Of a stretch of 64,000 bases of DNA, positions 1,284 to 14,486 are shown in pieces. The stretch's first letter is position 1. Every line of letters begins with the position of its first letter. The translations under genes were made by a program, and so were the position numbers. Origin of the DNA: Gammaproteobacteria bacterium (GTDB lineage Bacteria > Pseudomonadota > Gammaproteobacteria > Pseudomonadales > Azotimanducaceae); contig JAPPMF010000009.1 of the NCBI GenBank assembly GCA_028819195.1, forward strand, positions 84,363 through 148,362, in the 5' to 3' direction. The notes under the pieces were generated by a model. The model was not told the DNA's origin. It saw only the letters and a list, made by a program, of their open reading frames with translations, and made no database searches.

Positions 1284-2870
1284 ATGAAGTTGTTGGTAGG
1301 CTTGATCGCACTTTTGAGCATAGCGTCAGTTCTTGAGGCCGCGGAGATCGATCCATCAGAGCGCTACACCGTAATCTGTGACTATATTGGTGTAGAACCC
1401 GATCCACGTTATCTTCCTGAGGATTTTGAGACCAATGATGAACAATCTCTGAAGCTGGTCAACGCAACAGTTGTCATTTCAACTGAGACAGTCAACGAGC
1501 ACGGCGAAACCCAATACGAGAAACTAGCTTCGAAGCAGTTGGAAAATGGTCGAGCCGTCCTAGAAGGTGAGACAAGCGATCCGATGATGGTGACGATTGC
1601 TATCGAGTCGGAGACGGAAACACTACTGTCCGCGAGGACAGTCTTAGCTCCACGTGATGTGGTGTCAGTAGCCATACTAGACTATCGCGCTCAACTTTCG
1701 CGGAATAAGTTGGCCTTGATCGGCCGATCGCAATTGGCCGAAAATCCGGAGAAAAAGTTCACTATCGTCGGTAATCTTAGTTCGGTTGACTGGGATCTGT
1801 CCAAGACAACTGCTACCGTTAGTGTATATGGGCACGATGAGACCATCAATTTTGGCACAGTACTGCTCAAAGAAGGCTGTTTTTTGATCGAAGGCGAGAT
1901 TGTCGAGCCTACAGTTGTACACATCTCGATAAGCACGGGAGAGATGGGATATGGGGCTTCTACGAACGCAATAGTAGAGCCCAAGTCGGTGATTCGCGTG
2001 CTACCCGATGGTCCGGTTCATCATCAGTTGTTCACTACGTCTGGAGCGGGAAAGCACTTACAACTGATTGAGAGCTGGTTGCAGAGCCTTGAATATCGCG
2101 ACTTAGTGGACGCGTACACCGTTGCATTGGATGAACTGTACGCCGAAGTGAACACTAGACGGGAGATACTGAGCAGGAATGCGGATGCAACCTTCAAACG
2201 AATTGAAGAAACCGACCTCTACAAGCGAAAGGAGCAGTTGTGGGAACAATTGTGGACTCTCCGCCAAAATTCAAGGAACTCTATTGCGAAAACAGCCTCG
2301 GACCCATTCGATAGACTGCTAGCCTTGGAAATGGGTGCCTATTTCAGAAATGCATCCATTCAATTGCGCATCTACGATGAATTGGCACTTCTTTTAGATG
2401 AAGATCTAGTCGCCCGACGCGTCAAACCAGCTCGGGACGCTTTATTCGACTTCCTGCAAAATGCAGCTAACAGAAGAAGCTTGGATGTGGGTGATAAAGC
2501 TCCCCATTTTGTGTTGCCAAACGTGGACGGGGAAGAGGTCGCACTTTCCGATGTGCTTGACGAGAACGAATTGATTCTGATTGACTTCTGGGCATCTTGG
2601 TGCGCACCGTGTATTGCCCAGTTTCCAATCTTGAAGGAACTCTACGCCGAGTACAACGAGAATGGATTTGAGATTGTTACAATCTCCATTGATGACACTC
2701 TCGACGAGTGGAAGATGGCTTCCATCAAACAGGAACTACCATGGCTAGATCTGGCGGCAATAGGTGGTTTTTCGGTGGATGTACCTCTGTCATATGGAAT
2801 ATTTTTTGTTCCCATGAACTATCTTCTTGATTCAAAAGGGGGTAGTCATTCAAAGGGACATCGAACCTGA
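1284..2870 (+). CDS. Secreted TlpA/ResA-like thioredoxin-fold protein, paralogue 1. It has two N-terminal beta-rich repeats but no acidic linker or GCEHV motif. The 3' end is shifted by a G5 run.
   Basis: RBS gggagggg precedes the ATG. Signal peptide MKLLVGLIALLSIASVLEA. Repeats RYTVICDY...AVLEGETSDPMMVTIAI and KFTIVGNL...FLIEGEIVEPTVVHISI. Shared motifs GAGKHLQLIESW, DPFDRLLALEMG, DEDLVARRVKPARD and FWASWCAPC. The tail ...DSKGGSHSKGHRT differs from all paralogues. Removing one G at 2838-2842 restores DSKGVVIQRDIEPDQLEELL... ending at 2938. Confidence 0.8.
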   Translation: MKLLVGLIALLSIASVLEAAEIDPSERYTVICDYIGVEPDPRYLPEDFETNDEQSLKLVNATVVISTETVNEHGETQYEKLASKQLENGRAVLEGETSDPMMVTIAIESETETLLSARTVLAPRDVVSVAILDYRAQLSRNKLALIGRSQLAENPEKKFTIVGNLSSVDWDLSKTTATVSVYGHDETINFGTVLLKEGCFLIEGEIVEPTVVHISISTGEMGYGASTNAIVEPKSVIRVLPDGPVHHQLFTTSGAGKHLQLIESWLQSLEYRDLVDAYTVALDELYAEVNTRREILSRNADATFKRIEETDLYKRKEQLWEQLWTLRQNSRNSIAKTASDPFDRLLALEMGAYFRNASIQLRIYDELALLLDEDLVARRVKPARDALFDFLQNAANRRSLDVGDKAPHFVLPNVDGEEVALSDVLDENELILIDFWASWCAPCIAQFPILKELYAEYNENGFEIVTISIDDTLDEWKMASIKQELPWLDLAAIGGFSVDVPLSYGIFFVPMNYLLDSKGGSHSKGHRT

Positions 2871-3080
2871 CCAGCTCGAGGAGCTTCTCTCAGCTCATCG
2901 CAAGACAAGCCGTAGACTTGGTTTGTAGCACGATACAGGTGCGATCGAGGATGCAACAGACGCTTGGTCTGGGATTTAGGGACTTCTCGTTGAGAGCACG
3001 CTTACTGTAACTAAGTGGGTTCGTGGCTCAGAAGGGCTTTGCAGCACGAGTTGACCTGCGCTAACTAACGGAGGAGACCA

Positions 3081-13336: not shown

Positions 13337-13424
13337 TGCGATGGATTAGATTCGGGAACTATGACAACACGAGAAGAGTTTGTAAAATTCAATGTTTTTC
13401 CGCACAATGAGAGGAACAAGATCC

Positions 13425-14486
13425 ATGAAGGCATTCAGATACATTGCGATTGCGTTATTGGCTCACGCATCTGTTAGCATAATCGCACGCGTTAGCGATG
13501 AATCAGTTGAAAGTGTTGAAAATACTGGTGTCAAGGACAGTGTAGTCTATGTTACAACTGACTATTTCGAAAATAATGTCTTAGAGTCGGATGTACCGGT
13601 ATTAGTTGTCTTCACCGCTCCTTCGTGTGACCCTTGCAAGATTCTTGATCCTGTCATCGAATCTCTAATGCCAGAGATGTCAGGACTCGCAAAAGTTTTC
13701 AAGGTCGACACAGACGAAACTCCAGAAATTTCTTCCAAGTATCAGGTCTCTCGACTTCCAACAATCATCTTTTTCAGCAATGGTCTCGAATCGCACCGAA
13801 GCTCGAGTATTCATCCGCGAGACGCTTATGTTAGCTATCTTGAAGGTTTAAGCGAAGACACTTCGATTGACGATACGACTCTAAAGCTGCTCGACGAAGA
13901 TTGGTTTCGTCGGCACTACCTATTGACAGAAAAGGTTGAAGTCATTCAAGAGACTCTGGGACAATATCCTGATCTTCTCACAAAGGAGTTTGCTAACGGA
14001 CAAACTCCACTTTCAGTTGTTCTCAATTATCCGAGTAATAGTCAGGACGAACTTCTTGAATTGATATTGGCACAAGAGCCCAAAATTGGAACAAATGACC
14101 TCCTTGGGCTAGGTCGATGTAAAGAATTCAAGGAAGCGATAGCGCGAGACCCAAGAGCTGCAAACCGTCCCGACCCCGACGGAAATACTCCTTTGCTCAC
14201 GGCAATTTTAGGATCAACGATTGTCGGGAACGGAGAATGCGTAAATGCTGTACTTGAGACCGGCGCAAAGAAGATTCTCCCCACGACCATTTGCAACTCT
14301 CTTGGTGAACGAGTCAAATTTGAACCAGACGGCAAACTTGTGGACGAACTATTGAGTCTAATGACGAGAGAATGGGAGTCCGACTGGCACAACAACGAGA
14401 TTGGAGTTAAGTGGCGATTGCTGTTCCTCGAAATAATGGAAGCTAGGTATCTGAGAAGCGAGGACTTGATTGCAAGCAGGTCTTAG
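13425..14486 (+). CDS. Secreted thioredoxin-ankyrin fusion, second and more degenerate copy (active site SCDPC)
   Basis: Collinear with 6866..8065: signal-like MKAFRYIAIALLAHASVSIIA, then YFENNVLESDVPVLVVFTAPSCDPCKILDPVIESLMPEMSGLAKVFKVDTDETPEISSKYQVSRLPTIIFF, LDEDWFRR, QYPDLLTKEFANGQTPLSVVLNY and DPDGNTPLLTAILG. The C-terminal third diverges. Start taken at the 12th codon (M) of ORF 13392..14486. Confidence 0.7.
   Translation: MKAFRYIAIALLAHASVSIIARVSDESVESVENTGVKDSVVYVTTDYFENNVLESDVPVLVVFTAPSCDPCKILDPVIESLMPEMSGLAKVFKVDTDETPEISSKYQVSRLPTIIFFSNGLESHRSSSIHPRDAYVSYLEGLSEDTSIDDTTLKLLDEDWFRRHYLLTEKVEVIQETLGQYPDLLTKEFANGQTPLSVVLNYPSNSQDELLELILAQEPKIGTNDLLGLGRCKEFKEAIARDPRAANRPDPDGNTPLLTAILGSTIVGNGECVNAVLETGAKKILPTTICNSLGERVKFEPDGKLVDELLSLMTREWESDWHNNEIGVKWRLLFLEIMEARYLRSEDLIASRS

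Follow-up and report, generated by a model that had tools for sequence, protein, structure and literature searches.

A 64-kb window of a gammaproteobacterial genome (64,000 nucleotides of contig JAPPMF010000009.1, Azotimanducaceae; part of a 533-kb scaffold) carries, at positions 1284–14486, a lineage-specific expansion of exported-looking proteins of the TlpA/ResA/CcmG thioredoxin class. The array comprises five family genes, one of them disrupted, and one further member lies 28 kb away. All sizeable open reading frames (ORFs) within 1284–14486 are on the plus strand, and those listed in an initial annotation of this DNA were found at the same coordinates. That annotation had counted six consecutive family loci; the ORFs are present, but those at 9402 and 11215 are parts of a single disrupted gene, para4, which leaves five. 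We propose that the family members act as extracytoplasmic reductases whose clients would be picked by β-sandwich heads, performing a ResA/CcmG/Etrx-like upkeep or recovery of reduced cysteines in an oxidising compartment, a task multiplied and diversified here for life in a sponge. This reading draws on analogy with these relatives, and we put its probability at roughly 0.55.

The full architecture is found in para2 (3081–4898; 605 amino acids, active site WCGPC, GCEHV motif and a 45-residue acidic linker, by ORF, Pfam and alignment), para3 (4932–6746; 604 amino acids, WCTPC, identical to P0001 and the subject of our structure model) and para5 (11498–13336; 612 amino acids, WCGPC, a 58-residue acidic linker). 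Aligned with 30 homologues, the window paralogues, which are mutually 35–40% identical, keep one order of parts: a signal-like N-terminus, two modules, a helix, a linker, GCEHV, a helical segment and DFWASWC.PC. The motifs G.(H/K)H..L..SW (the helix), GCEHV and DPFDSLLALE / VARRV.P.RD are conserved across the 30 homologues. The acidic linker spans 41–58 residues, of which 44–56% are D, E, S or T. This order, which had been ascribed to every locus, is borne out by the alignment except in para1 (1284–2870). By ORF and Pfam analysis, para1 has a putative signal peptide, two DUF4369 modules, the helical segment and a TlpA-type thioredoxin domain (WCAPC), but it lacks the acidic linker, the CEH motif and both cysteines of the CEH/GCI pair described below.

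The N-terminal halves of the family ORFs match Pfam DUF4369, a resemblance that the initial annotation had noted. With E < 0.01 as the threshold, PF14289 matches 18 of 25 such halves (lowest E 7.5e-9), and para1 (29.9 bits) and para4 (26.7 bits) exceed the gathering score of 25. The proposed two-module repeat also holds: module 1 aligns with module 2 in hhalign with a probability of 98.7% (E 2.7e-16), pointing to an internal duplication. An AlphaFold2 model of the N-terminal 280 residues of para3 contains two β-sandwiches and a helical hairpin (predicted local distance difference test (pLDDT) 89.3, predicted template modelling score (pTM) 0.85). The full-length para3 model (pLDDT 82.9, pTM 0.76) is disordered at residues 297–335 and 351–365, with the GCEHV stretch between them at pLDDT ~81, followed by a helical region and the thioredoxin fold. 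A search of the N-terminal profile against Protein Data Bank (PDB) sequences gave no match at E ≤ 1.

The family carries a cysteine pair of its own. The upstream cysteine usually lies in GCEHV, 144–148 residues before DFWASWC, and the downstream one in GCI, on the last strand of the thioredoxin fold. Among 104 complete members, 78 have both cysteines, 22 have neither, 4 have the upstream cysteine only and none has the downstream cysteine only. Both are missing in para1, in the para1-type insert within para4, in P0032 and in P0033, while P0035 has lost CxxC and kept the pair. This co-occurrence, together with the confidently modelled GCEHV stretch, suggests that C344–C578 is a structural disulfide pinning the post-linker segment to the thioredoxin domain.

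The C-terminal domain places the family in its class, as the initial annotation had recognized. Pfam AhpC-TSA, Redoxin, Thioredoxin_8 and Thioredoxin match the C-termini of the ORFs at 1284, 3081, 4932, 10351 and 11498, with E values of 1e-15 to 1e-19 for the first three. In Foldseek, the domain superposes on the Bacteroides TlpA-like structures 4grf and 3fkf with a template modelling (TM) score of 0.90 and a root mean square deviation (rmsd) of 1.8–1.9, and it also matches ResA, CcmG and Etrx2 (E 1e-9 to 1e-11). A phmmer search against PDB relates it to 3fkf at E 4.9e-20. The NCBI annotation of the window proteins is ‘TlpA disulfide reductase family protein’. FWASWC[GAT]PC is present in every full-length paralogue and in the para1-type insert (ORF 10351–11037), and WC[GTA]PC in all intact window members. 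Across the 30 homologues, C498, C501 and the cis-proline P568 are nearly invariant. Among 106 complete members, counted on the basis that they retain [DE]FW[AS][ST]WC (which leaves out motif-losers such as P0035), WC..C is kept in 105 and the CxxC dipeptide is GP in 75. GP is the classic dipeptide of reducing thioredoxins. On sequence grounds, the family thus consists of exported-looking TlpA/ResA/CcmG-class thioredoxin-fold proteins.

The initial annotation had not recognized a described system here, a view that has to be revised. In hhalign, the family is collinear with seven DUF4369–TlpA proteins of Bacteroidota, themselves uncharacterised (probability 100%, E 7.3e-44, 344 columns, template positions 29–375 of 383). 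The Bacteroidota proteins are 370–400 amino acids long, and the aligned span runs from the second DUF4369 module of the window family to its C-terminus. They are annotated as ‘TlpA family protein disulfide reductase’ or ‘thiol-disulfide oxidoreductase’, and their C-terminal domains have been solved as 3fkf, 4grf/2lrn and 3fw2. They share with the window family an export-type N-terminus and the lack of a characterised function, and they also occur in tandem arrays, of which the one in Flavivirga (L014) has four genes and that in a Bacteroidaceae metagenome-assembled genome (MAG; L083) has three. The window family, by contrast, is ~600 amino acids long, is gammaproteobacterial, sits in an island with thioredoxin–ankyrin and PvdO-like genes, and alone has a second DUF4369 module, an acidic disordered linker of 40–60 residues and the GCEHV...GCI pair, none of which occurs in the Bacteroidota sequences inspected. 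Because of this collinearity, we regard it as an enlarged form of a known uncharacterised family and not as a categorically new system: the DUF4369–TlpA family was already known, and the architectural variant and the conserved gene island are new. In the literature, we found DUF4369 just in gene tables. According to a title cited in PMC4229322, a Flavobacterium psychrophilum tlpB mutant lost gliding and formed more biofilm; this protein may be of the same class and serves as a lead only.

The family genes in the array are accompanied by two further gene types. TrxAnk1 (6866–8065, plus strand) encodes a putative signal peptide, a thioredoxin domain (WCAPC; Pfam Thioredoxin 2.2e-25) and ankyrin repeats (Ank_2 1.2e-9). 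Directly beyond it, at 8182–9090 on the plus strand, lies a gene for a protein of the formylglycine-generating enzyme (FGE) fold. The three gene types had been suspected to belong together, and the comparison of loci supports this. In five independent loci (the window, L093, L002-4, L096 and L097), the TrxAnk and FGE-fold genes form a co-oriented pair 28–120 nucleotides apart, flanked by 3–8 family genes. In the L093 island, para4 is intact and is accompanied by para5, an EF-hand protein and Trx2, in a genomic context that differs from that of the window; L096 carries about eight and L097 about seven TlpA-type genes. One protein of L002-4 (P0032, 817 amino acids) is an in-frame fusion in which a PvdO-like domain precedes a family member at its N-terminus.

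Of the two thioredoxin–ankyrin fusions originally called in the array, TrxAnk1 stands. The second, Trx2 (13425–14486, plus strand; 353 amino acids), has a putative signal peptide and a thioredoxin domain (SCDPC) and is a TrxAnk1 paralogue, with 47% identity to residues 21–303, but it lacks the C-terminal ankyrin repeats and matches Pfam Thioredoxin only. Trx2 is not a pseudogene, since its 353-amino-acid orthologue in L093 is 81% identical. The wider TrxAnk1 family (~400 amino acids) has at least 285 full-length homologues at 42–95% identity (including P0049–P0168), from Gammaproteobacteria and Holophagales/Acidobacteria MAGs that, by inference, are apparently sponge-derived. Like the ankyrin ‘eukaryote-like’ proteins of sponge symbionts, TrxAnk1 has ankyrin repeats and a putative signal peptide; it differs from them in that its repeats are fused to a catalytic-looking thioredoxin domain. 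We found no publication on thioredoxin–ankyrin fusions or TlpA expansions in sponge symbionts.

The fold assigned to the 8182–9090 product is confirmed: PF03781 (FGE-sulfatase) matches 239 of its residues at E 1.8e-60. Within that fold, however, it resembles PvdO and lacks both FGE catalytic cysteines. Its N-terminus has a hydrophobic segment, and its closest solved relative, matched over the full length, is PvdO (5hha, E 4e-44). In an alignment to bacterial FGE (6s07), ggsfLCHESYCnry corresponds to ggsfNSEARFLsssf, so that both catalytic cysteines are replaced. We rejected a true FGE with a sulfatase partner on account of these missing cysteines and the lack of a sulfatase context. PvdO, described in NCBIfam as a periplasmic dihydropyoverdine dehydrogenase with an FGE/C-type-lectin-like fold, likewise lacks the two FGE cysteines and has an export-type N-terminus. 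The window protein differs in scoring far below the NCBIfam PvdO equivalog cut-off (185.6 against 500), and neither pyoverdine (pvd) nor sulfatase genes are found in the window. It is best described, from its sequence, as a PvdO-like protein of the FGE/C-type-lectin fold. Close orthologues (65–76% identity) seem limited to island-bearing contigs, which was verified for two contigs and is otherwise partly inferred.

Two further genes recur at these islands. A hypothetical protein of ~415–628 amino acids, with no Pfam match, is found beside family arrays in three genomes at 27–48% identity, sometimes in several copies (L001 6085–7656 and 12110–13620; L002 23–2587 and 14620–16476; L093 5351–7237), and is absent from the window. 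An EF-hand protein of 223–231 amino acids lies in or next to the island in L093 (16538–17233) and L002 (7861–8532) and is missing from the window cassette.

For this family, a word-indexed search of 5.8 billion proteins returned ~35 full-length relatives. When a profile of the N-terminal half was searched exhaustively against 1.84 billion proteins, it gave 177 representatives at 50% identity, 97 of them at E ≤ 1e-30 and most 520–660 amino acids long; all named representatives are ‘MAG: Gammaproteobacteria bacterium’. Among the matches listed from 185,579 GTDB species representatives, the full-length architecture occurs in three MAGs only (Gammaproteobacteria or Pseudomonadales), and the others match in the thioredoxin domain only, mainly in Bacteroidota, with some extending upstream of that domain. 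Judging from record names, the window and the island loci apparently derive from sponge metagenomes. The SB066x MAG series, to which some island loci belong, is listed among sponge Poribacteria genomes (PMC7883664).

Members also vary in form. Single-module relatives of 415–500 amino acids occur in the same clade, and a lipobox-like motif is present in 39 of 103 family representatives. We observed one variant with a C-terminal DUF547 domain (P0197, 806 amino acids) and CxxC-less members that retain the β-sandwiches, the helical segment and the cysteine pair (P0035, 621 amino acids, and a 617-amino-acid copy at 1097–2950 of L093).

In the reductase model that we favour, Sec would export the proteins, and many relatives would carry a lipid anchor. 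A membrane electron transporter of the DsbD/CcdA type, encoded elsewhere in the genome, would hold the WCGPC site reduced, and reducing equivalents would be handed to particular extracytoplasmic clients. The two β-sandwich modules would form the client-binding head and the acidic linker a flexible tether, with the cysteine pair acting as a structural disulfide that staples the post-linker segment onto the thioredoxin domain. The PvdO-like protein would be the best candidate client or partner, because one lineage has it as an N-terminal fusion with a family member. Two sets of known proteins inform this model. ResA, CcmG (DsbE) and TlpA are extracytoplasmic reductases of cytochrome c and CuA/Sco maturation, fed by DsbD/CcdA. 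They belong to the same thioredoxin subfamily by sequence and structure, with CxxC, the cis-proline, apparent export and an expected reliance on DsbD/CcdA in common, whereas the window family is three times longer, has β-sandwich heads, is multi-copy and varies between sister species. Etrx1 and Etrx2 of Streptococcus pneumoniae are surface lipoprotein thioredoxins that feed MsrAB2 and guard against extracellular oxidative stress. These proteins (2yp6, 4hqz, 4hqs) share the TlpA-like fold (sequence E ~1e-16, and structural matches), a lipoprotein or apparently exported location, a host-associated lifestyle and paralogous copies, and may offer a functional parallel; they differ in being Gram-positive and without DUF4369, and no Msr gene lies near the window family.

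Several observations weigh against the reductase model. Neither an electron donor (DsbD, CcdA or ScsB) nor an obvious client (Msr, sulfatase, cytochrome or Sco) is encoded in the 64-kb window or the inspected flanks. Foldseek of the N-terminal model returned just generic tandem immunoglobulin (Ig)-like/β-sandwich folds at TM ~0.2, including the PepT2 extracellular domain, transglutaminase barrels, Bacteroidales fimbrial proteins, FN3 pairs and adhesins; being generic, these matches give no pointer to what the heads bind. Export is judged heuristically: in the N-termini, K/R precedes a hydrophobic core (10-residue Kyte–Doolittle mean 2.0–3.5), and they were called Sec-type by eye and hydrophobicity. 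The statistical association within the cysteine pair (Fisher 8e-19) is uncorrected for phylogeny. The sister species (L008) has only para1–3 at the site, with no TrxAnk or FGE gene there, and TrxAnk often stands alone outside the island, in Holophagales and other gammaproteobacterial MAGs (loci L091, L092, L094 and L095). Partnership among the three gene types is thus not obligatory.

An alternative that we consider unlikely is that the family, the thioredoxin–ankyrin proteins and the PvdO-like proteins are host-directed redox effectors, released or surface-exposed, which act on sponge proteins, for instance through the reduction of disulfides in matrix, lectin, receptor or antimicrobial proteins, and aid persistence and the avoidance of phagocytosis. 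All loci with a visible sample seem to originate from sponge metagenomes or MAG sets, and the islands contain eukaryote-like modules: ankyrin repeats, EF-hand proteins and, in the L002 island neighbourhood, a 1737-amino-acid TPR protein. Thioredoxin–ankyrin homologues recur in MAGs of different phyla, and many family relatives resemble outer-membrane-type lipoproteins. Sponge MAGs show an enrichment of ankyrin proteins, and an effect of such proteins on phagocytosis has been demonstrated (PMC8163846).

The evolution of the family bears on this alternative in both directions. Relative to the sister species, family genes have a nonsynonymous rate (dN) of 0.07–0.15 and a ratio of nonsynonymous to synonymous rates (dN/dS, ω) of 0.12–0.20, compared with 0.007–0.055 and 0.02–0.14 for the neighbouring glmS, glmU and atp genes. 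At the protein level, the family thus evolves 3–10 times faster than neighbouring housekeeping genes. Turnover is visible as a copy-number difference, an ectopic insertion, a polymorphic frameshift, an 8.1-kb insertion or deletion, CxxC-less copies, single-module copies and the C-terminal DUF547 variant. Faster evolution, gene gain and loss, and decay are as in host-interface genes. By region, however, ω is 0.10–0.24 in the β-sandwiches, 0.11–0.34 in the linker and 0.08–0.16 in the thioredoxin domain; its highest value in any region is 0.39, and it stays at or below 0.34 outside the 22-codon signal peptide. Values well below 1 in each domain indicate purifying selection, and no positive selection was detected at the resolution used (region-wise dN/dS against the sister species). 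The rapid diversification proposed earlier is thus real as speed, copy-number change, disruption and the 8.1-kb difference, but the proteins are under constraint. The synonymous rates of para2 and para3 against L008 (0.77 and 1.06) are about twice those of flanking genes (0.32–0.60), which may point to exchange with other alleles or paralogues by recombination or gene conversion.

Other points against host-directed effectors are that the N-termini are Sec-type only, with no secretion-system gene or effector signal, that a reductase outside the envelope would lack an obvious electron supply, and that no search pointed to a host target. A host-interface role would extend the reductase model without contradicting it. 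It would suit the eukaryote-like neighbours and what looks like a restriction to sponges. In its furthest form, which we hold to be less probable again, the island would be a horizontally shared redox module of sponge symbionts that reduces or remodels disulfide-bonded host proteins (matrix, lectins, receptors, antimicrobial peptides) or repairs host-inflicted oxidative damage. If true, this would amount to thiol-based persistence or immune evasion, undescribed for any animal symbiosis.

The members could, improbably, be non-catalytic binding or scaffold proteins, with heads that serve in adhesion or in glycan or protein binding and a thioredoxin domain that is mainly structural. Such a role would suit P0035 and the 617-amino-acid L093 copy, in which CxxC is lost and the rest kept, as well as the nearest solved Bacteroides domain, 3fkf, which has CDPQ in place of CxxC, and the adhesins, fimbrial proteins and FN3/Ig pairs among the fold matches. 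It conflicts with the retention of WC..C in all but one of the motif-retaining complete members, with the retained cis-proline and with the thioredoxin domain being the most constrained part of the protein.

We consider it highly improbable that the genes are duplicated housekeeping TlpA/ResA/CcmG factors for cytochrome c or CuA/Sco maturation. The top NCBIfam matches are indeed ResA, DsbE and TlpA, and ResA, CcmG and TlpA are among the structural matches, but all scores fall far below the curated cut-offs (ResA 69–76 bits against 170, DsbE 37–63 against 123, TlpA 40–50 against 230), so the proteins are not orthologues of any of the three. As had been reported for this region, ccm, sco, dsbD and ccdA genes are lacking: none was found in the 64 kb among the ORFs covered by the Pfam scan or by synteny with L008, and no ccm, res, sco or cox genes lie near the array. 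Nor does an essential maturation factor fit with a 600-amino-acid architecture, with this copy number or with presence that varies from one sister species to another. A role as thiol peroxidases (peroxiredoxins) is slightly less credible still: PF00578 AhpC-TSA is the best-scoring Pfam family, but the active site is WC[GTA]PC and not the peroxidatic PxxxT/SxxC, the nearest structures are TlpA/ResA-type oxidoreductases, and NCBIfam peroxiredoxin models reach just ~19–29 bits.

The structure of para4 was clarified by comparison with L093, a 3.17-Mb contig in which the orthologue is intact (610 amino acids). Window positions 6953–10507 are 92% identical at the DNA level to the L093 cassette, and this homology ends at 10507. 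The 5′ part of para4 (9402–10523, plus strand) encodes a putative signal peptide, two DUF4369 modules, the linker and GCEHV and ends at a premature stop. From 10504 to 11064 (plus strand), an 85% nucleotide copy of the para1 3′ end (2382–2942) stands in for ~550 nucleotides of para4. The copy encodes the helical segment and a thioredoxin domain with WCAPC but no GCI cysteine, in a frame that differs from that of the 5′ part (ORF 10351–11037, Pfam AhpC-TSA 3.7e-17). Homology to the para4 3′ end in L093 then picks up again at 11211–11355; the original 3′ end, the former ‘remnant’, spans 11211–11361 on the plus strand and is 84% identical in nucleotides to L093 14212–14356. Because L093 homology flanks the para1-type copy, the 5′ part, the out-of-frame C-terminal ORF and the remnant are one gene, which, as read from these alignments, is broken through ectopic insertion of a para1-type fragment. 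Downstream, para5 is 80% identical in nucleotides to its L093 orthologue. The block containing TrxAnk1, the FGE-fold gene, para4, para5 and Trx2 (6739–14839; 8.1 kb) is missing at the same site in the sister species, where homology to L008 breaks off at window position 6738 and starts again at 14840.

The unusual C-terminus of para1 results from a 1-nucleotide frameshift, an extra G in a G-run at 2838–2842, which is visible against the para4 insert and the L008 and L010 orthologues. Both the window and the Logan assembly of SRR10996925 have G5 here (para1 truncated), and the SRR10996927 assembly has G4 (para1 intact); the frame is intact in Logan assembly L007. The difference reflects polymorphism between strains or else an error in the homopolymer. 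The array itself is real, and an assembly artefact through collapsed or chimeric repeats in the MAG can be set aside almost entirely: the para4 junction falls at the start of a repeat common to para1 and Logan contigs stop shortly beyond it, but a Logan assembly made with another assembler from a different single run (L006) is 100% identical to window 2471–10572 with the junction included, the insert matches para1 at 85% and not at 100%, many other MAGs and the 3.17-Mb contig hold orthologous arrays, and paralogues only 35–40% identical make collapse impossible.

The remaining family member, para7 (42423–44150, plus strand; ORF from 42345), was outside the range initially described. It is a divergent member, 28% identical to para5, with a lipobox-like FTSC, ECEHIVV, WCGPC and GCI but no acidic linker, and it adjoins genes typical of mobile or defence regions. 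Around it, downstream of gyrB, lies a small variable-looking region (41001–49162) that also encodes a DUF4143/AAA_14 ATPase, a 620-amino-acid ParA/CbiA-like and TPR protein, an MqsA-like antitoxin, an unannotated 285-amino-acid ORF and a DUF5131 (phage-type) protein. We considered whether the 620-amino-acid protein is the recurrent hypothetical (~618 amino acids) of the L001, L002 and L093 islands and rejected this, as there is no similarity.

The rest of the window is a replication-origin neighbourhood with glmS, glmU, the atp operon, parAB, gidAB, mnmE, yidC, dnaA, dnaN and gyrB. Directly downstream of the array, at 15061–15829, are genes for two paralogous small membrane proteins (119 and 122 amino acids; 57% identity over 68 residues) that have no Pfam match and occupy the same position in the sister species. 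A PCO_ADO homologue (a thiol dioxygenase of the cysteamine/plant-cysteine-oxidase type, E 6.6e-21) is encoded at 56282–56995 on the minus strand. The PCO_ADO family is mostly eukaryotic, and this homologue could have a connection with the hypotaurine or taurine chemistry of sponges. In the window, scans for Rfam families and tRNAs found nothing, and a promoter and terminator scan of 1–15100 gave counts at or below shuffle expectation.

DUF4369–TlpA proteins are among the commonest uncharacterised exported redox proteins in Bacteroidota. The partner genes and the fusion in the gammaproteobacterial branch provide the first concrete client or partner leads for them, in the PvdO-like and thioredoxin–ankyrin proteins. 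TrxAnk ties a catalytic domain to ankyrin ‘eukaryote-like’ proteins so far known as binding modules only, and the additional predicted disulfide and the acidic tether are simple structural hypotheses that mutagenesis can check. The island is a compact, testable candidate for symbiont thiol or oxidative chemistry at the sponge interface.

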